DNA of 46,793 nt, from positions 1 through 46,793 of the forward strand of contig CANRDZ010000001.1 of NCBI GenBank assembly GCA_947629465.1. Reading direction: 5' to 3'. Every line of letters begins with the position of its first letter. Position 1 is the stretch's first letter. Source of the DNA: an uncultured Bacilli bacterium. GTDB taxonomy: Bacteria; Bacillota_I; Bacilli_A; RF39; UBA660. The notes under the pieces are model-generated. The model searched no databases. It was not told the DNA's origin and saw only the letters and a list, made by a program, of their open reading frames with translations. This document shows, piece after piece, positions 2,723 to 23,456 of the stretch. Made by a program: the position numbers and the translations under genes.

Positions 2723-3397
2723 ATGGAAAGAAAAAATAAAATTATTTTAATTGGAATAATTGTTTTAACTGTTTTAGTATTAATTGTTTGTGGTTATTTG
2801 TTAAGTGTTAAAAATAATGTTTTAAAAGATAGTGATAGATTTAGAATAGAATATATGGAATTAAATGATAAAACTAATAATGATTCATATCCAGTAGTAA
2901 ATATTAGTGAAAATAATACTATTAAATATATAACTTCTAATGAAGCTGTAAATTTAATTTCTCAAGGCACAGGTGTTATTTATTTTGGCTTTAATAGTTG
3001 TTTTCAATGTCGACTTTTAGTGGAAACACTTTTAAATAAAGCTAGCCAATTAAATGAGACAATTTATTATTTGAATATAGAAAATATTAGATCAGAATTT
3101 GCAATTTCTGATGATGAATTAATAAATACTAAAAAAGGTAGTCAAGAATATTATAAAATTTTGGATCTATTGGATGAATATTTAGATGAATATTATTTAA
3201 CTGATAATAATTTTAATGATTATGATACTTTTGAAAAAAGATTACAAGCTCCAACATTGTTAGCTATAAAAAATGGGGAAGTAACAGATATTCATGTAGG
3301 TACAGTTGAAGAAGAAAACATTTCTGATGGTCTTAAAAATGAGCAATTAAAAGAGTTAGAAAAAATTATTGAAAATTTAATTATTAGTAAAAATTGA
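2723..3397 (+). CDS. Membrane-anchored thioredoxin-fold protein with CxxC (CFQC), paralog of 1348..2043
   Basis: N-terminal TM helix. YFGFNSCFQCRLL aligns with YFGFKSCPWCRSM of the neighbouring paralog. Shared APxxxxxxxGE C-terminal motif. Confidence 0.55.
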   Translation: MERKNKIILIGIIVLTVLVLIVCGYLLSVKNNVLKDSDRFRIEYMELNDKTNNDSYPVVNISENNTIKYITSNEAVNLISQGTGVIYFGFNSCFQCRLLVETLLNKASQLNETIYYLNIENIRSEFAISDDELINTKKGSQEYYKILDLLDEYLDEYYLTDNNFNDYDTFEKRLQAPTLLAIKNGEVTDIHVGTVEEENISDGLKNEQLKELEKIIENLIISKN

Positions 3398-3454: not shown

Positions 3455-4378
3455 ATGGCAAAGAAAAAAACTAAAATTGAATTAGAAAATATTGAATTAA
3501 AACCACAAGTTATTGGATATACTTATAAAAAGAAATCTAATCTTGGAAGAGTTACATTTATTTTTATTTGTTTTGTTTTAGTTATTTATTATATAAATGA
3601 TATTAGTGTGTATATTAATAATTTATTAGGTAAAAATACTGCTGAAACTATTCAGAATAATACTACTTCTAATAAAGATAAAGAAGATGTTCCAGGGGAA
3701 TCTAAAAATATTGTTTATAATGTTTTTAGTGAAGATTTAGCAATAACAGAAAATAATTTAGTATTAAATAATTTTAAATTAGCTGATAAAGTTTTATCTT
3801 TTGACGCTAATAATAATACTAATACAATGATTGATTTGACAAATAAAAAATATTTTTTAGAAATTTATACGCAAGGTAAAACTTTGCTTAAAAGAATGAA
3901 AATAGATTTTAATAATATAAATGCTAATTCTAAAATAAGTTTAATGTTTGATGTCGATAGTGAATTTTATTATATTGCAATAGTGGAAAAAACTATTGAT
4001 GATTATCCACAACCTTCTTTCACTCAAACGAATGGTATTATTAATTTTACTTGCAAAAAAGGAAATGAAGAAATTAATTATAATTTTCAAGATAATAAAT
4101 TAACTGCAATTAAGCATACAATAGTTGATAATAATATTAATGATAGTGATTATTCTTCTAGATATTTATCTTATCAAAATAAAGTACGTGAATATAATAA
4201 TTTAAATGGTGTTAATGCTGCTTTTGATGGAACAGTTAATGGTTTTAAAGTAACAATTTCTATTGCTTTAAGTAGTTTAGAAGAAAAATTAAGTGAAAAA
4301 TATTATTTTCAATCTGAAACGACACCTAGAATAGTAAATTTTGAAATGGAAACTTATGGATTTAAATGCCAACAATAA
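3455..4378 (+). CDS. Hypothetical membrane-anchored protein
   Basis: 307-aa ORF with one N-terminal TM (VTFIFICFVLVIYYI) and an Asn-rich extracytoplasmic part. No recognisable motif. Confidence 0.4.
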   Translation: MAKKKTKIELENIELKPQVIGYTYKKKSNLGRVTFIFICFVLVIYYINDISVYINNLLGKNTAETIQNNTTSNKDKEDVPGESKNIVYNVFSEDLAITENNLVLNNFKLADKVLSFDANNNTNTMIDLTNKKYFLEIYTQGKTLLKRMKIDFNNINANSKISLMFDVDSEFYYIAIVEKTIDDYPQPSFTQTNGIINFTCKKGNEEINYNFQDNKLTAIKHTIVDNNINDSDYSSRYLSYQNKVREYNNLNGVNAAFDGTVNGFKVTISIALSSLEEKLSEKYYFQSETTPRIVNFEMETYGFKCQQ

Positions 4379-18705: not shown

Positions 18706-18795
18706 ATATGTAAAACACACTAATTATCCAATAAATATATCTAAAAAAGATTTAAGAATGGCAAAATATTTGATCACTCAATTTGGTGGTGCTAA
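18698..18795 (+). CDS. cotJC: cotJC 5' segment (codons 1-32 plus two bases of codon 33), interrupted by the intervening element
   Basis: MFKYVKHTNYPINISKKDLRMAKYLITQFGGA matches the CotJC N-terminus (B. subtilis ...AKYLIEQYGGADGELAAALRY...). As it stands the frame runs into element DNA and stops at 18839..18841. Confidence 0.85.
18782..18795 (+). repeat. attL core: 14-bp direct repeat tttggtggtgctaa
   Basis: Identical 14-mer at 22983..22996. Both copies encode F-G-G-A of CotJC in frame. Confidence 0.85.
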
Positions 18796-18796
18796 A

Positions 18797-18808
18797 TGTA
18801 AAAGCGAT
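18797..18808 (+). repeat. Left element arm tgtaaaagcgat (inverted repeat of 22970..22981)
   Basis: Perfect 12-bp reverse complement of atcgcttttaca at 22970..22981. Each arm lies 1 nt from the core. Confidence 0.8.
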
Positions 18809-18815
18809 GTTTTTT

Positions 18816-20258
18816 TTATTCTTTGTAATAAATTTCGATAGTTTCATTTTTTTTGTCATAAACAATGTAATCAATTAATTCATGAATTACGGTATATTTT
18901 TTCATCATATCTATTTTTTCATCAATTAATAATTCATATACATTTTTAGCATTTATAGAAATGTTTTGTTCTTTAATTGTTTCATTATCTTTAGGCAATT
19001 TATTAATTTTTTCATTAATTTCTTTAATATTTTTTTCGGTTTGCAATTTGTTTTCTTTATATTCTTCTAATGTGTCAATTCCTTCTAAATATAAATTTTT
19101 ATATCTTACTAATTTTTCTTGTAAAATTTTTAAATTATTTTTTAAAATTTCTTTTTCATCTAAAAGATTATTTTCTATTTTTTTCTTACTAAAATTAATA
19201 TTAATAGGATTTTTATAATCTTTTTGAATTTGATTCAATATTGCTGGTATAATTTTTGAATAACTAATATAATGACTTTCTTCACAGCTACCATGAGAAT
19301 AACCTATACATTGAAGAGCATTTTTTTGTGTAGTTAGAGTAGATCCACAATTACTACATTTCACTAATTTACTAATCCAACTAAAGTTGCTAGTTGAAGT
19401 TGATTTATATAAATCCTTTTTCTTTAAAATTTGAGCTTGTATTTTATCAAATATTGCTTCATCAATTAAAGCTTCATGGTTTCCTTTTTTTAATATTCCG
19501 TTTTTTTCTTTAAATTTATAATCCCAACTTGATTTAGAGTTAGGTGTCCATAGAGTATAACCTTTATATACCGGATTTCTTAATATGTATTCAATTGTTC
19601 TTACTTCCCATTTATTATTATGAGTTGTTCTAATTCCTAAATTATTTAATTTTCTAGCAATTTCTTTAAAGCTAATTCCATTTTGATAATTATTAAATAT
19701 CATTTTTACTATTTTAGATGTCTCTTGATCAACGATTAATTGTTTATCGACCATTTTATAACCAAAAGGTGCTTTTGTTTGATATTCGCCTCTATTTGCC
19801 TTTTCAACCATGCCTTTTTTTACTTCGTCAGATAAGTTAAGAGAATAGTATTCGGCCATTGCTTCTAACATTGCCTCTAAAATAACAGAAAATTTATCAT
19901 CACCAAAATCTTCAGTAATAGATATTACTTCAACTTTACATTCTCTTTTAAGTAGTGATTTATAAACTATACTATCTTCACGGTTTCTTGCAAATCTATC
20001 TAATTTATGTACTAAAATAACATTAAATGGAGAAGTAGGTTTTATTTTTGCTGTAGCAATCATTTCCATAAATGCTGGCCTTTTTTCTGCTTTGCGACCA
20101 CTAAACCCTTCATCTTTATAAATGTATTTGGGATCTATTTCAATATTATTTTTTTTAGCATATTCTTTTATCGCTTTTAATTGTGCGTCAGGAGAGTATT
20201 CTGTTTGAGAATCTGTACTGACACGAATATATACTGCAGCAATTCTTTCTTCTTTCAT
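18816..20258 (-). CDS. Large serine recombinase (SpoIVCA/SprA-like)
   Basis: Resolvase catalytic domain AAVYIRVSTDSQ ... LVHKLDRFARN, recombinase domain, zinc ribbon CSNCGS...C..YSHGSC, C-terminal coiled coil. 480 aa. Confidence 0.9.
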   Translation of the reverse strand: MKEERIAAVYIRVSTDSQTEYSPDAQLKAIKEYAKKNNIEIDPKYIYKDEGFSGRKAEKRPAFMEMIATAKIKPTSPFNVILVHKLDRFARNREDSIVYKSLLKRECKVEVISITEDFGDDKFSVILEAMLEAMAEYYSLNLSDEVKKGMVEKANRGEYQTKAPFGYKMVDKQLIVDQETSKIVKMIFNNYQNGISFKEIARKLNNLGIRTTHNNKWEVRTIEYILRNPVYKGYTLWTPNSKSSWDYKFKEKNGILKKGNHEALIDEAIFDKIQAQILKKKDLYKSTSTSNFSWISKLVKCSNCGSTLTTQKNALQCIGYSHGSCEESHYISYSKIIPAILNQIQKDYKNPININFSKKKIENNLLDEKEILKNNLKILQEKLVRYKNLYLEGIDTLEEYKENKLQTEKNIKEINEKINKLPKDNETIKEQNISINAKNVYELLIDEKIDMMKKYTVIHELIDYIVYDKKNETIEIYYKE

Positions 20259-20287
20259 AAATTTCCTTTCTTTTAATTAAATTTTAT

Positions 20288-20320
20288 GCTACAATATATA
20301 CGAAAACCTATATATGTAGC
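20288..20320. promoter_or_regulatory. Imperfect palindrome gctacaatatata-N8-tatatatgtagc just upstream of the recombinase start
   Basis: 13/12-nt arms with one bulge. Overlaps an extended -10-like TGcTACAAT on the plus strand (20287..20295). Confidence 0.4.
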
Positions 20321-20369
20321 AATTTAATATATGCTATTTAAAAATTCGTTTAGTTTGGGTTTTCACTTA

Positions 20370-20404
20370 CCTCTATTCTGTTCTAGCAGAGTAGAGGATT
20401 TTTT
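20370..20404 (+). terminator. Plus-strand Rho-independent terminator with no annotated plus-strand gene upstream
   Basis: 11-bp stem cctctattctg/cagagtagagg, 6-nt loop, then attttttatt. The minus-strand version has no U-tract. Confidence 0.6.
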
Positions 20405-20422
20405 ATTATATGTGTTAAATAC

Positions 20423-20450
20423 TTGACTAATAAATGTATTTTTTTATAAT
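20423..20450 (+). promoter_or_regulatory. Near-consensus sigma-A promoter TTGACT-16-TATAAT facing the 3' end of the Abi gene
   Basis: -35 at 20423..20428, -10 at 20445..20450. The predicted start near 20457 lies just upstream of hairpin copy 2. Confidence 0.5.
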
Positions 20451-20456
20451 AATTTT

Positions 20457-20506
20457 GCATAATATTTAATGATCCTAAGTATCCCGTGTGGACTTAGGAC
20501 ATTTTT
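20457..20506 (+). ncRNA. Candidate small hairpin RNA, copy 2 (stem UCCUAAGU/ACUUAGGA, loop AUCCCGUGUGG, U5)
   Basis: Hairpin at 20473..20499 followed by cattttt. Same-sense duplicate of the hairpin in the Abi leader. Overlaps the Abi stop codon on the opposite strand. Confidence 0.4.
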
Positions 20507-21450
20507 GATATATCGTGCCAATTTGTTGGGAAATTCATAGCATTTAATACATCATTTAAGGATATAGTATGTAGTTTTGATTGTATACTCATCATTCTAC
20601 TAAATAATTTGTGATGAAATTTATCATAATCTTCTTTAGGTAATAGTAATTTTAACGTAATTACGACAGCGAATAAATCATTTTTCCCAATTTCATATCT
20701 TCCATTATCAATTGGCAAATTCATCATTTGATGATATTTAGTGTCATTTATACTAGTGTAGGTTGGAAATTTATAATTATATAGTCTTTCATCATGCGCA
20801 CACAGATTTCTGGTTTTAGTTAAAATATTCAATAAACTATATAAATCTGCTTCATTAATATTTAATTCAATGGCTATTTTTGTTCTTTCACGTTGTTTCA
20901 TTAACCTATAAAAATTACAAATATCACCAAAGGATAATATATTAACTAATACCCATAAAGGAACGAAGCCGTAATTTATTATGTAATGATTGATATATTT
21001 GTTTTCAATATTGCTTGCTATATTTTTATTTATATTGCCTATTAAAGATTGAATATATTTAATATTTTTTTGTTTAGTATCATTATTTACGTTAACGTTT
21101 TCAAATGTTTCAAAATTATTCAATTTTAAATAATTATCATTTCCATATTGTTCGGAAAAGTAATATGCAATTAAAGCACGTAATGAATTTTCAAATTTTA
21201 AAATATATTCTAAAAATATATTTCTTAATTGCCTATCAAATTCATAAAGAGCATATATTTCATTAAAATTTGTTCCAAATTTGTAAATACTAGAATCTTG
21301 CTCATCTAAAAATAAATCTTTATATCCATTTATGATGTTGTAATAATTATTATGCAATAATATTTTTTTTGCTTCTTCCTCGTTTTCGAATATTATATTT
21401 CTTGATTTTAGTAAATTTATTTGCTCATCTATATCTTTAAATTCTTTCAT
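20494..21450 (-). CDS. Abi_2 family (AbiD/AbiF-like) abortive-infection protein, HEPN-type Rx4H motif
   Basis: N-terminus MKEFKDIDEQINLLKSRNIIF, NYYNIINGYKD, FGDICNFYRL, TRNLCAHDERLYNYKF (RNLCAH). The track ORF extends to a TTG at 21513, but the family N-terminus supports the ATG at 21450. Confidence 0.85.
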   Translation of the reverse strand: MKEFKDIDEQINLLKSRNIIFENEEEAKKILLHNNYYNIINGYKDLFLDEQDSSIYKFGTNFNEIYALYEFDRQLRNIFLEYILKFENSLRALIAYYFSEQYGNDNYLKLNNFETFENVNVNNDTKQKNIKYIQSLIGNINKNIASNIENKYINHYIINYGFVPLWVLVNILSFGDICNFYRLMKQRERTKIAIELNINEADLYSLLNILTKTRNLCAHDERLYNYKFPTYTSINDTKYHQMMNLPIDNGRYEIGKNDLFAVVITLKLLLPKEDYDKFHHKLFSRMMSIQSKLHTISLNDVLNAMNFPTNWHDISKMS

Positions 21451-21456
21451 AATAAT

Positions 21457-21498
21457 AAAAAAGTCTTCAGTCCACACGGGATACTGAAGATCACTTAC
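21457..21498 (-). ncRNA. Candidate small hairpin RNA / leader terminator, copy 1 (stem UCUUCAGU/ACUGAAGA, loop AUCCCGUGUGG, U6)
   Basis: Hairpin at 21464..21490, followed on the minus strand by cUUUUUUAUUAUU and then the Abi ATG. It lies directly downstream of the promoter at 21505..21533. Confidence 0.45.
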
Positions 21499-21504
21499 AA
21501 AGTA

Positions 21505-21533
21505 ATAATACAACTAATTTATGTGATTGTCAA
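21505..21533 (-). promoter_or_regulatory. Near-consensus sigma-A promoter TTGACA-17-TATTAT driving the hairpin leader and the Abi gene
   Basis: Minus strand: -35 at 21533..21528, -10 at 21510..21505. Confidence 0.5.
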
Positions 21534-21694
21534 TATCCAATTTTGATTTTCAAATTTACGTCATTTTGACATTTAGACTTTATTTTTTCACTCCTTTCAA
21601 ATACCGGAAAAAAATCCGTTTTTTTTCTTGTATTCATAGAATACTCGAAATTATTTCTTGTATTTTATGAATGATGGAAATGTTTTTCTCAATT

Positions 21695-22384
21695 TTACAA
21701 TCTTGTCCTCTTTTCTTTAGCAATACCAATAATTTTAACTGGTAAATTTGCTATTTGTTCTTTATTGTAAAAAGTTGGTAAGTATTTATCTTGATTATTT
21801 AAATTTAGGGGTATAAGAGTTATTCCAGATTCATTTATTGTTACATTTTTAAAAGTAGCATCAAAACCATTTACCATAACAGCACAGTCTTTATTATTTG
21901 CTTTTTCATAATCATTAACTTGTTCGAAAATAACAATATCATTTTCTTCATATTTTGGTGCCATGCTGTCTCCACTTATTTTTAAACCATAAAATTGTTT
22001 ACCACCTTTTAACCATTCTTTTGGTATATCTATATATTCTAATATATCTTGTTGAGCTTCAATAGCAATACCTGCTTTAATAGTTCCTAAAACAGGTATT
22101 TGTATAGTTTCATTAGTTGAAACAAGTTGAGTAGCATTATCAAAGTTTAAATCTTCAATTTTAACATCACCCGATTGTATAAGTAAATCGTTTATTGACA
22201 TTCCCATAGCGTTTGCAATTTTTTTTAATGTATCAACTGTAACTCTAACTGGTTTGCCTGTTCTAGGATCATAGCCTTTTTCAATGCTATCCAAATGAGT
22301 ATGGCTAATATCGCATTTTTTGGCAAAGTCTCTTAATGACATATTTCCACGAAATTTTTTGATATATTCACCTATATAATTCAA
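21695..22384 (-). CDS. CI/LexA-type repressor: XRE helix-turn-helix plus S24 self-cleaving peptidase domain
   Basis: MSLRDFAKKCDISHTHLDSIEKG (HTH). LKISGDSMAPKY (Ser nucleophile) and a downstream Lys (ATFKNV). TTG start preceded by GGGAGG at 8-nt spacing. Confidence 0.85.
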   Translation of the reverse strand: MNYIGEYIKKFRGNMSLRDFAKKCDISHTHLDSIEKGYDPRTGKPVRVTVDTLKKIANAMGMSINDLLIQSGDVKIEDLNFDNATQLVSTNETIQIPVLGTIKAGIAIEAQQDILEYIDIPKEWLKGGKQFYGLKISGDSMAPKYEENDIVIFEQVNDYEKANNKDCAVMVNGFDATFKNVTINESGITLIPLNLNNQDKYLPTFYNKEQIANLPVKIIGIAKEKRTRL

Positions 22385-22411
22385 ATAATATTCCTCCCTT
22401 TTTCATTAATT

Positions 22412-22440
22412 ATTGTAATTTATAATTTACAAAAAATCAA
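22412..22440 (-). promoter_or_regulatory. Putative repressor promoter TTGATT-17-TACAAT overlapping the palindromic operator TTGTAAtttataatTTACAA (22413..22432)
   Basis: Minus strand: -35 at 22440..22435, -10 at 22417..22412. 20-bp imperfect palindrome. A related half-site ttgtaaattat at 22457..22467. Confidence 0.4.
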
Positions 22441-22469
22441 TAATTTTAAATACTTTTTGTAAATTATGC

Positions 22470-22498
22470 TTGACATTAATTTTAAGTAAAAATAATCA
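22470..22498 (+). promoter_or_regulatory. Putative divergent promoter (perfect -35 TTGACA, weak -10 TAATCA) next to the operator half-site
   Basis: TTGACA at 22470..22475. The best -10 at 17-nt spacing is poor, so support is limited. Confidence 0.3.
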
Positions 22499-22686
22499 AT
22501 TAAAATTCAGGCATTTACTTAAAGACCAGATTAACCTCTTTTACTTTTTTATATTTTAAAATACTATTTAAACAAATTTTTCTATTTTTCATCTAGTTCT
22601 CAAATATGTGTCTTTATAAATCTACTAGAATTAGATAATAACTCAAATTAAACAAAAAACATAAGCTAATATAGGAGTTGAAACTC

Positions 22687-22797
22687 ATGGAATGTAAAAA
22701 AGAATTAAAAGTAATAGTTCATAATCCAGTTACCGAAGAAAAAGCATCAAAAAAAATAAGAGATATATGTGAATTATTAAAAAATATGGAGACTTAA
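22687..22797 (+). CDS. 36-aa micro-ORF (MECKKELKVIVHNPVTEEKASKKIRDICELLKNMET), candidate recombination directionality factor or relic
   Basis: AGGAG at 22673..22677, 9 nt before the ATG. The only RBS-supported plus-strand ORF in the element. Confidence 0.3.
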   Translation: MECKKELKVIVHNPVTEEKASKKIRDICELLKNMET

Positions 22798-22921
22798 TAG
22801 TATCAACTACATATTATACTATTACTGATTTAGATGGTGATAGAGAGTATATCAGCAAATAGAAATGATAAAATGTTTGTGTGGGCTTCTATGAATACAA
22901 AAAATATTAAATTATATAAAT

Positions 22922-22954
22922 AAGGTAGGGAAATAATTTCTACCTTGTTTTTTT
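22922..22954 (+). terminator. Rho-independent terminator just inside the right end of the element
   Basis: aaggtag...ctacctt stem with inner extension, followed by gtttttttatttg. Confidence 0.6.
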
Positions 22955-22969
22955 ATTTGAATTTTTACT

Positions 22970-22981
22970 ATCGCTTTTACA
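22970..22981 (+). repeat. Right element arm atcgcttttaca (inverted repeat of 18797..18808)
   Basis: Perfect 12-bp reverse complement of the left arm. Confidence 0.8.
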
Positions 22982-22982
22982 C

Positions 22983-23456
22983 TTTGGTGGTGCTAATGGC
23001 GAACTTGCAGCAGCAATGCGTTATTTTAGTCAAAAATTTACAATGCCTGATGATAAAGGTAAAGCCTTACTTAATGATATAGCTACAGAAGAACTTGGTC
23101 ATTGTGAAATGATTTGTTCAATGGTACATCAATTAACCAAAAATGCTACTATTAAAGAACTTGAAGAAGTAGGTCTAGCTTCATATTATGCTGATCATAA
23201 TAAAGGTATATATCCTATTGATGCAAGTGGAGTTCCTTTTACAGCAACATATTTTGCAGTTACAGCTGATCCAATTGCTGATTTAATGGAAGATATGGCA
23301 GCTGAACAAAAAGCTAGGGCAGTATATGAAAATTTAATTGATTTAACTGATGATGAAGATGTTTTAGCACCATTATTATTCTTAAGACAAAGAGAAGTTG
23401 TGCATTTTAATCGTTTTAAAGAATTATATGAATACTATAAAACAAAAGGATATTAA
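22983..23456 (+). CDS. cotJC: cotJC 3' segment (manganese-catalase-family spore coat protein), begins with the attR core
   Basis: In frame: FGGANGELAAAMRYFSQKFTMPD..TEELGHCEMI..GVPFTA..DPIADL..MAAEQKARAVYE..LLFLRQREVVHFNRF, colinear with B. subtilis CotJC. There is no start codon or RBS of its own at the junction. Confidence 0.9.
   Translation, partial: FGGANGELAAAMRYFSQKFTMPDDKGKALLNDIATEELGHCEMICSMVHQLTKNATIKELEEVGLASYYADHNKGIYPIDASGVPFTATYFAVTADPIADLMEDMAAEQKARAVYENLIDLTDDEDVLAPLLFLRQREVVHFNRFKELYEYYKTKGY

Follow-up and report, generated by a model that had tools for sequence, protein, structure and literature searches.

A HEPN ribonuclease gene between two inverted RNA hairpins: a probable AbiF-type toxin-antitoxin module of gut Bacilli

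The window analysed here, a stretch of 46,793 nucleotides (nt) of contig CANRDZ010000001.1 (assembly GCA_947629465.1) from an uncultured Bacilli bacterium of the RF39 lineage, contains on its minus strand the gene abi (21450..20494; start codon ATG at 21450, stop codon TAA at 20496..20494), which is flanked by two short inverted hairpin sequences. It encodes a homologue of the Abi_2/AbiD-F HEPN ribonucleases (RNases) of 318 amino acids (aa), which is the proposed toxin of the module described below; throughout the text, upstream and downstream of abi are used in the sense of the minus strand. The product belongs to Abi_2 in Pfam (PF07751, E 1e-47) and to AbiD in PADLOC (E 1e-64), these being the sole matches in both collections, and a profile of the protein and its homologues matches PDB entry 8VZ6 ('Abi family protein', PbAbiF) at E 1e-22. 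The HEPN Rx4H motif RNLCAH, to which a preliminary description made from the sequence alone had drawn attention, is formed by residues 214–219 (20811..20794), and R214 and H219 are invariant across 24 homologues. Among the 1628 homologues found at E up to 1e-10, the majority are exactly 318 aa long, and their N-terminus is MKEFK, matching a start at ATG 21450. An alternative TTG start at 21513, which would lead to translation through the upstream hairpin, was therefore rejected. The 12 nt separating this hairpin and the ATG contain no visible Shine-Dalgarno sequence, as had been observed before, and such a sequence is likewise missing in the subclade of abi.

The two inverted 30-mers reported in the preliminary description are present on either side of the gene. 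Hairpin A (copy A; minus strand, 21450..21499) consists of a 5' leader UGUAAGU, a stem-loop (21492..21463) and a tract of six uridines (21462..21457), which ends 6 nt short of the abi ATG. Hairpin B (copy B; plus strand, 20464..20513) consists of a stem-loop (20471..20500) and a tract of five uridines (20502..20506) and is oriented convergently to abi. Both match the covariation model described below, hairpin A with 72.6 bits (E 7e-14) and hairpin B with 67.5 bits (E 1.4e-12). Their arms (20470-20511/21452-21493; 42 nt, 83% complementary) form the longest inverted repeat within 18-24 kb, and the 17-nt core AGTATCCCGTGTGGACT has exactly two occurrences in the window compared to 0.02 expected by chance. 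The four differences between the copies can be read directly as two compensatory pairs (T-A to C-G and C-G to A-T), and folding each copy yields the previously proposed stem of 8 base pairs (bp) with an 11-nt loop, within which CC/GG closes a GUGU tetraloop. The second copy runs into the 3' end of abi, as had been stated, and it contains the stop codon: the complement of this codon is located in the 3' arm of hairpin B, whose U tract is antisense to the final Lys and Met codons. Over the final ~25-40 nt of the abi messenger RNA (mRNA), a transcript of copy B would show perfect complementarity. Each transcription unit contains one hairpin only, and Tandem Repeats Finder detected no tandem repeat array at either hairpin.

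In both copies a stable GC-containing hairpin is directly followed by a U tract, so that both would qualify as intrinsic terminators. The mean folding energy is -11.2 kcal/mol for copy A and -10.0 kcal/mol for copy B, and the next 8 nt contain on average 6.3 and 5.3 uridines, respectively. A consensus terminator scanner missed both copies because their loop exceeds 8 nt. Although terminator-like, the hairpins are predicted to be of modest strength, and with a folding energy of about -10 to -11 kcal/mol hairpin A would be a leaky intrinsic terminator.

Hairpin A is preceded by P_A (minus strand, 21533..21505), which is composed of TTGACA (21533..21528), a 17-nt spacer and TATTAT (21510..21505) and agrees with the consensus at 11 of 12 positions. 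An equivalent, TATTGACA-17-TATAAT, is kept in most to nearly all homologous loci and ends ~10 nt before the stem of hairpin A. P_A would drive hairpin A and, via read-through, abi, which is predicted to be without a promoter of its own and thus to be transcribable only from P_A, through hairpin A. On the opposite side, the preliminary description had assigned hairpin B to the near-consensus site TTGACT-16-TATAAT (plus strand, 20423..20450; 11/12). While this site and P_A are indeed the two best promoter-like sites in 20200-21800, the former is specific to the window and absent in the closest homologous loci, e.g., L001 (91% protein identity). The conserved promoter-like element of copy B overlaps it and is referred to as P_B (plus strand, 20435..20463): TGTATT (20435..20440), a 17-nt spacer and CATAAT (20458..20463), the latter ending 7 nt before the stem of hairpin B. 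Across 32 aligned regions upstream of copy B, A2 and T6 of this -10 box (20459 and 20463 in the window), the two positions weighing most in a -10 hexamer, are invariant. A weak -35-like TGTAT is placed 17-18 nt further upstream, and its 'AT' is conserved in at least 90% of the 32 sequences.

How far this arrangement is conserved was assessed on 80 loci of abi homologues taken from species-representative genomes. In most loci above ~44% identity, a plain motif scan recovered the loop on both sides of the gene, in sense upstream of it and in antisense downstream, and inspection of the flanking sequences revealed complete modules. For a covariance-model scan of Abi_2 neighbourhoods, which had been suggested in the preliminary description, the covariation model R1 was built from 30 copies and searched in the window plus 81 loci (674 kb); all but 5 of its 83 matches either immediately precede the abi start in sense or span the abi stop in antisense. 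Among the loci with at least 42% protein identity (n=42), copy A is present in 39, copy B in 36 and both in 34, the latter spanning 42-91% identity with the same positions and orientations as in the window; two of the six loci lacking copy B are contigs ending at the gene. Copy A is the more constant of the two with regard to loop and presence. The flanking inverted copy was not found in 36 Abi_2 loci below 40% identity nor in phage phiC2, hence the arrangement is a mark of one subfamily. Genomes carrying it stem from rabbit, human, chicken and mouse and belong to uncultured gut Bacilli, 'Tenericutes', Erysipelotrichaceae and relatives, in which the cassette occurs as a unit in unrelated gene neighbourhoods and has a recombinase nearby in few loci only. 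In a scan of viral contigs for the Abi protein, L128 was the only one belonging to this subfamily, and it carries both copies; a 15-mer scan of viral contigs gave 46 matches, of which 4 are genuine hairpins according to the covariation model and the remainder chance.

A few further loci deserve mention. In the distant locus L054 an unrelated palindrome is located on either side of the gene. Three orphan hairpins occur without abi nearby (L092, 7828-7877; L093, 1332-1381; L127, 410-459). Those of L092 and L093 have their own TTATAAT box and a U7 tail and are flanked on one side by a serine integrase and on the other by a CI-like repressor, while that of L127 is found in a phage contig upstream of terminase-like genes and has no U tract. 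These orphans could be remnants or antitoxin mimics directed against AbiF, comparable to pseudo-ToxI.

The alignment of the copies allows to distinguish which type of molecule is under selection. In the model alignment 92.8% of the cells are paired and all 8 pairs of the outer helix change on both sides; double-change cells number 134 versus 42 in shuffles, and control alignments in which the 3' partner was slid show pairing of only 19-57%. The same helix is predicted by RNAalifold from a MAFFT alignment made without reference to the structure. The consensus fold consists of a 7-9 bp stem, a 3-nt bulge on the 5' side, a 2-3 bp inner helix CC(C)/GG(G), a GNGU tetraloop and a tail of 5-8 uridines. 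The bulge is AUC, or UUA in one clade, and copy B shares the bulge, the inner helix and the loop of copy A. C-to-U changes in the inner helix yield G-U pairs, and in the proposed sense orientation G-U pairs exceed A-C mismatches by 27:1 in copy A and, after dropping 7 rows that were aligned one column out of register, by 11:1 in copy B. Such an excess of G-U on one strand is expected neither for a site in duplex DNA nor for an RNA transcribed from the other strand. The conservation pattern thus argues that both hairpins are selected as RNAs, as the preliminary description had proposed, with single-stranded DNA as an alternative, from the compensatory pairs and the identical loop of the two copies, and copy B seems to act as an RNA whose transcription runs towards abi. 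Moreover, variants of bulge and loop shift jointly in copies A and B of one locus, as in L024 and L026, where both read UUACCC...GGG, which fits two ligands of one protein. The stem of copy B (CCUAAG/CUUAGG) is more constant than that of copy A because its 3' arm and U tract are antisense to the last codons of abi; conversely, the C-terminus of the protein (KMS or KKS) is conserved because copy B overlaps these codons (K-M/K-S/F-stop).

These features lead to the type of system the locus represents. AbiF constitutes a type III toxin-antitoxin system, in which the protein homodimer binds two hairpins of a non-coding RNA (ncRNA) (PMC12373285, PMC12737573, PMC13064643). Each PbAbiF monomer binds one ncRNA, whose bulge nucleotides inhibit the RNase (PMC12737573), while the Clostridioides difficile antitoxin RCd22 contains two motifs, both of which are required, and acts in cis by premature termination and in trans by binding (PMC12373285). 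The lactococcal AbiD, AbiD1 and AbiF depend on their upstream region (PMC13064643). The link between AbiF proteins and structured ncRNAs, which had been mentioned in the preliminary description, is published by now. The module of the window shares the logic of these systems (PbAbiF-AbiFr of 8VZ6, AbiFCd-RCd22, lactococcal AbiD/AbiD1/AbiF): an Abi_2 HEPN toxin with Rx4H motif, the order of a sigma-A-type promoter, a structured ncRNA, a terminator and a toxin reached by read-through only, and the localisation on a prophage-like or integrative element; as is characteristic of AbiF, a structured and conserved RNA is encoded on the same strand between promoter and toxin start codon. The two copies match the two RNA hairpins per protein dimer in the published complex. 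We therefore assign the module to the AbiF type and consider it probable that it is an AbiF-type (Abi_2 HEPN RNase) type III toxin-antitoxin/abortive-infection system, whose RNA antitoxin is a ~45-nt hairpin supplied from two inverted flanking genes.

The module also differs from the described AbiF systems. In the window the antitoxin hairpin itself would be the terminator, 12 nt before the ATG, whereas elsewhere a separate terminator follows; in described systems the ncRNA is located upstream, with two tandem motifs in one RNA in the case of RCd22, whereas here two separate inverted genes are found, the second placed over the stop codon; and a Shine-Dalgarno sequence is absent in the subclade of the window. 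The downstream convergent copy is not described in PMC12373285, PMC12737573 and PMC13064643, although an earlier description in the 2025 work on AbiF and Cas13 is possible. What would be new here is thus the uncatalogued RNA motif, the hairpin doubling as a leaky terminator and the second, independently transcribed convergent copy.

Rfam scans of the window, run both at gathering score and with a relaxed limit of E up to 10, and of 17 homologous loci matched only tRNAs, a tmRNA and an L21 leader; neither abiF nor ToxI nor any further antitoxin family was among the matches. In particular the window contains no match to RF03085, the abiF motif, up to E 10, nor do the 17 loci at gathering score, while as a positive control the same model matches phiC2 with 37.6 bits. 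RF03085 and the window hairpin are unrelated both in sequence and in consensus structure; in the former an outer stem of 6 bp and an inner stem of 3 bp are separated by an asymmetric internal loop. A match to RF03085 defines the Rfam family and not the toxin-antitoxin type. The equivalence to AbiFr and RCd22 consequently rests on position and protein homology. No close relative of PbAbiF was present among the fetched loci, none exceeding 31% identity. As a separate observation, the Abi_2 genes of L042 (~3900-3990) and L044 (~3020-3100), with 33-37% identity, have a promoter, a GC-rich hairpin and a U tract right upstream, and these hairpins are unrelated in sequence to copies A and B (e.g., GUCCUCCGAUAACCUAAGGGUUCGGAGGC), so that the AbiF family may use several RNA motifs beyond RF03085.

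Several points weigh against this assignment. The RNA has no match to RF03085, which is the only curated AbiF-associated family, and the transcripts, their ends and the binding by the protein are deduced from sequence. Part of the conservation of copy B, namely that of its 3' arm and U tract, is imposed by the stop, Ser and Lys codons that it overlaps, and the complement of hairpin B, in the sense of abi, could simply be a hairpin at the 3' end of the abi mRNA. The -35 element of P_B is poor. Furthermore, copy B is lost in L014, L031 and L038, and its loop is divergent in five loci: in L011 and L012 the stem is retained with a different loop (AAACCUGUUAGGA), and in L027, L028 and L032 an inner helix GCG/CGC replaces CCC/GGG, combined with another loop. 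Copy B is therefore dispensable or still evolving.

Other known systems share parts of the design. The preliminary description had compared the locus to ToxIN, and its proposal of a type III-like RNA antitoxin is supported by the homology to 8VZ6 and AbiD and by the conserved hairpins, whereas membership in the ToxIN family can be ruled out. In ToxIN, AbiQ, CptIN and TenpIN, as proposed for the window, the gene of an RNA antitoxin immediately precedes that of the toxin, the ratio of both is set by a terminator, and the outcome is abortive infection; their antitoxins, however, are tandem direct repeats processed by the toxin, and there is no tandem repeat at either hairpin here, and their toxins adopt the ToxN/AbiQ fold while abi encodes an Abi_2 HEPN protein. 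In prophage-like elements of Firmicutes, toxin genes are known whose 3' end is overlapped by a convergent small RNA, e.g., txpA/RatA and bsrG/SR4 of Bacillus subtilis. These type I systems likewise place a convergent small RNA gene over the toxin 3' end within a prophage-like or skin-like element, but their toxins are small membrane peptides and not a 318-aa RNase homologue, and in the window the overlap before the U tract amounts to only ~25-40 nt and the hairpin, which resembles a protein ligand, is duplicated upstream of the gene. Cas13 also combines a HEPN RNase with a short conserved hairpin 'handle', that of the direct repeat of its type VI CRISPR RNA (crRNA), and AbiF-ncRNA systems, reportedly first characterised in 2025, are said to be proposed ancestors of Cas13. 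A read-through transcript of copy B would consist of such a handle joined to a stretch complementary to an mRNA, as in a Cas13 crRNA; the module differs from Cas13 by the absence of a repeat-spacer array and by a protein that has a single HEPN domain, would dimerise and is not known to perform guided cleavage.

The same observations can be explained in other ways. The hairpins might mainly control transcription and not act as antitoxin, copy A being an attenuator in the abi leader, copy B a bidirectional terminator or 3'-end stabiliser, and the loop a binding site for an autoregulatory or other factor. This would agree with the hairpin, U tract and terminator-like energy of both copies, with the fact that reading of abi must pass copy A, with the partial action of RCd22 via premature termination, and with the complement of copy B being a hairpin at the abi mRNA 3' end. 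Generic terminators, however, do not hold an 11-nt loop and a bulge near invariant amid covarying stems over 42-91% protein identity, and neither a conserved -10 box of its own 7 nt upstream nor a G-U bias antisense to abi is needed if copy B terminates abi. In addition, the abi-sense strand is without a proper U tract after copy B, and the orphan copies of L092 and L093 are equipped with a promoter without a gene to terminate. We regard this explanation as unlikely. It is even less likely, and in our view improbable, that copy B is mainly a cis-antisense RNA, which as in type I systems anneals to the abi mRNA at its 3' end and triggers its degradation, so that its likeness to copy A would be secondary. 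Although the perfect complementarity of the P_B transcript to the final part of the mRNA and the precedents txpA/RatA and bsrG/SR4 speak for it, an antisense RNA needs no conserved fold, yet copy B keeps the bulge, inner helix and loop of copy A, varying together with A, its stem covaries, and it ends in a U tract after only ~6 nt more of overlap. The cis-antisense and the antitoxin role of copy B are not mutually exclusive.

The inverted repeats could finally be DNA sites, either of an invertible, phase-variable abi cassette, which had been offered as an alternative in the preliminary description, or as terminal inverted repeats of a small mobile cassette. In the window they bracket a gene adjoining a serine recombinase, and the cassette is present in many unrelated contexts. 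In all 34 two-copy loci (assemblies), however, the orientation of abi relative to the A-type arm with P_A and to the B-type arm is identical; the arms form two distinct lineages, and neither hybrid nor flipped arms occur. The differences between the arms are compensatory and preserve each hairpin rather than arm-to-arm identity, and stems varying with retained pairing together with G-U far exceeding A-C on one strand point to RNA. Moreover, most loci have no recombinase nearby, and the recombinase of the window has its own attachment sites in cotJC. We consider DNA sites very improbable, and the proposed inversion was abandoned.

If the AbiF assignment is correct, a mechanism can be outlined, the steps of which are carried over from the homologous PbAbiF (8VZ6) and C. 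difficile AbiF/RCd22. AbiF would form a homodimer binding one hairpin per monomer, with the bulge nucleotides blocking the HEPN active site. Most transcripts starting at P_A would stop at hairpin A, providing the antitoxin RNA in large excess over the rare read-through mRNA of abi, which additionally is without a Shine-Dalgarno sequence. AbiF bound to hairpin A of the full-length mRNA, ~12-13 nt from the ATG, could furthermore block translation initiation. P_B would supply the second hairpin uncoupled from transcription of the toxin; since P_B is convergent, its transcripts would be antisense to the abi mRNA 3' end, and transcription from P_B may interfere with that of abi. Upon collapse of transcription, caused by phage infection or by loss of the 4.2-kb element that carries the module, the short RNAs would decay and free AbiF would cleave RNA and arrest growth. 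The module may thereby stabilise the 4.2-kb element besides defending the cell. A more speculative idea, to which we assign only a slender chance, is that copy B represents a natural 'proto-guide': leaky read-through from P_B would produce an RNA combining an AbiF-binding handle with a stretch antisense to abi, which tethers AbiF to its own mRNA. AbiF would then cleave or silence its own message, and the module would be a living intermediate on the way from a type III antitoxin RNA to a Cas13 crRNA, which we hold to be just as doubtful; under this assumption the orphan hairpins L092, L093 and L127 could be antitoxin mimics serving anti-defence.

The locus defines a subfamily, which is found in tens of species-level genomes of gut Bacilli and whose RNA partner is absent from Rfam. 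Its design would be more compact than that of described systems, with an antitoxin hairpin serving as attenuator and a second, convergent antitoxin gene placed over the toxin stop codon. If confirmed, it would offer a simple system to study how many RNA ligands the AbiF dimer requires, to test the uncoupling of antitoxin supply from toxin transcription and to test whether one RNA acts both by protein binding and by antisense pairing. The motif model can be used for annotating such systems in metagenomes and for flagging orphan hairpins, which are possible means of phage counter-defence.

Further signals are found at the edges of the cassette. A strong terminator-like hairpin (plus strand, 20370..20397; 12 bp followed by T6) is placed between the integrase start and P_B and is the only terminator-like site reported by the scanner in 20200-21800. 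Unrelated terminator-like hairpins occupy the same place in L006, L007, L020, L092 and L093, and it probably insulates the cassette from transcription on the integrase side. There is no obvious gene for it to terminate; TGCTACAAT, an extended -10-like box near 20288, could yield a ~100-nt transcript ending at this hairpin. On the other side, ~40 nt upstream of the P_A -35, a purine-rich element GAAAGGAGNG...AAAGTC is located (minus strand, 21576..21598). The pattern GAAAGGAGG-N(2-9)-AAAAGT recurs 30-50 nt upstream of the P_A -35 in ~18 loci, the sequence further upstream being unrelated, and the element marks where the conserved cassette ends on its left side. Although similar to a Shine-Dalgarno sequence, it is not followed by a conserved open reading frame (ORF). 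The motif 'CAnnnTGGgTATTGACA' immediately upstream of the P_A -35 is conserved as well.

The cassette is part of a ~4.2-kb element (18796..22996), which interrupts the spore-coat gene cotJC. The N-terminal part of cotJC is found from 18698 and the C-terminal part at 23016..23456. Two copies of a 14-bp core, TTTGGTGGTGCTAA, lie at 18782-18795 and 22983-22996; when they are joined, the CotJC frame is restored (...LITQFGGANGELAAAMRYFSQKF...). Besides the cassette, the element encodes a large serine recombinase (minus strand, 18816..20258), a CI/LexA-like S24 repressor (minus strand, 21695..22384) and an ORF of 36 aa (plus strand, 22688..22798), and it looks like a skin-type intervening element within a sporulation gene. 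A 4302-nt contig encoding an identical abi protein was considered as the excised circular element and rejected, since it represents a regular piece of this very chromosome. In L005, L009, L024 and L032 the abi cassette is situated ~0.5-2 kb from an uninterrupted cotJB-cotJC operon, and the cassette may land in the neighbourhood of cotJ repeatedly. Two repeats flank the repressor gene: between the abi cassette and the repressor stop codon (21624..21689), a 30-nt unit TTTCTTGTATTCATAGAATAATCGAAATGTA is repeated 2.2 times with 78% matches, and just upstream of the gene (22408..22481), beside a TTGACA box, a 28-nt inverted repeat (82% complementary, 18-nt gap) contains TTGTAAATTATAATTTACAA and probably forms the operator, together with the divergent promoters, of the genetic switch of the element.

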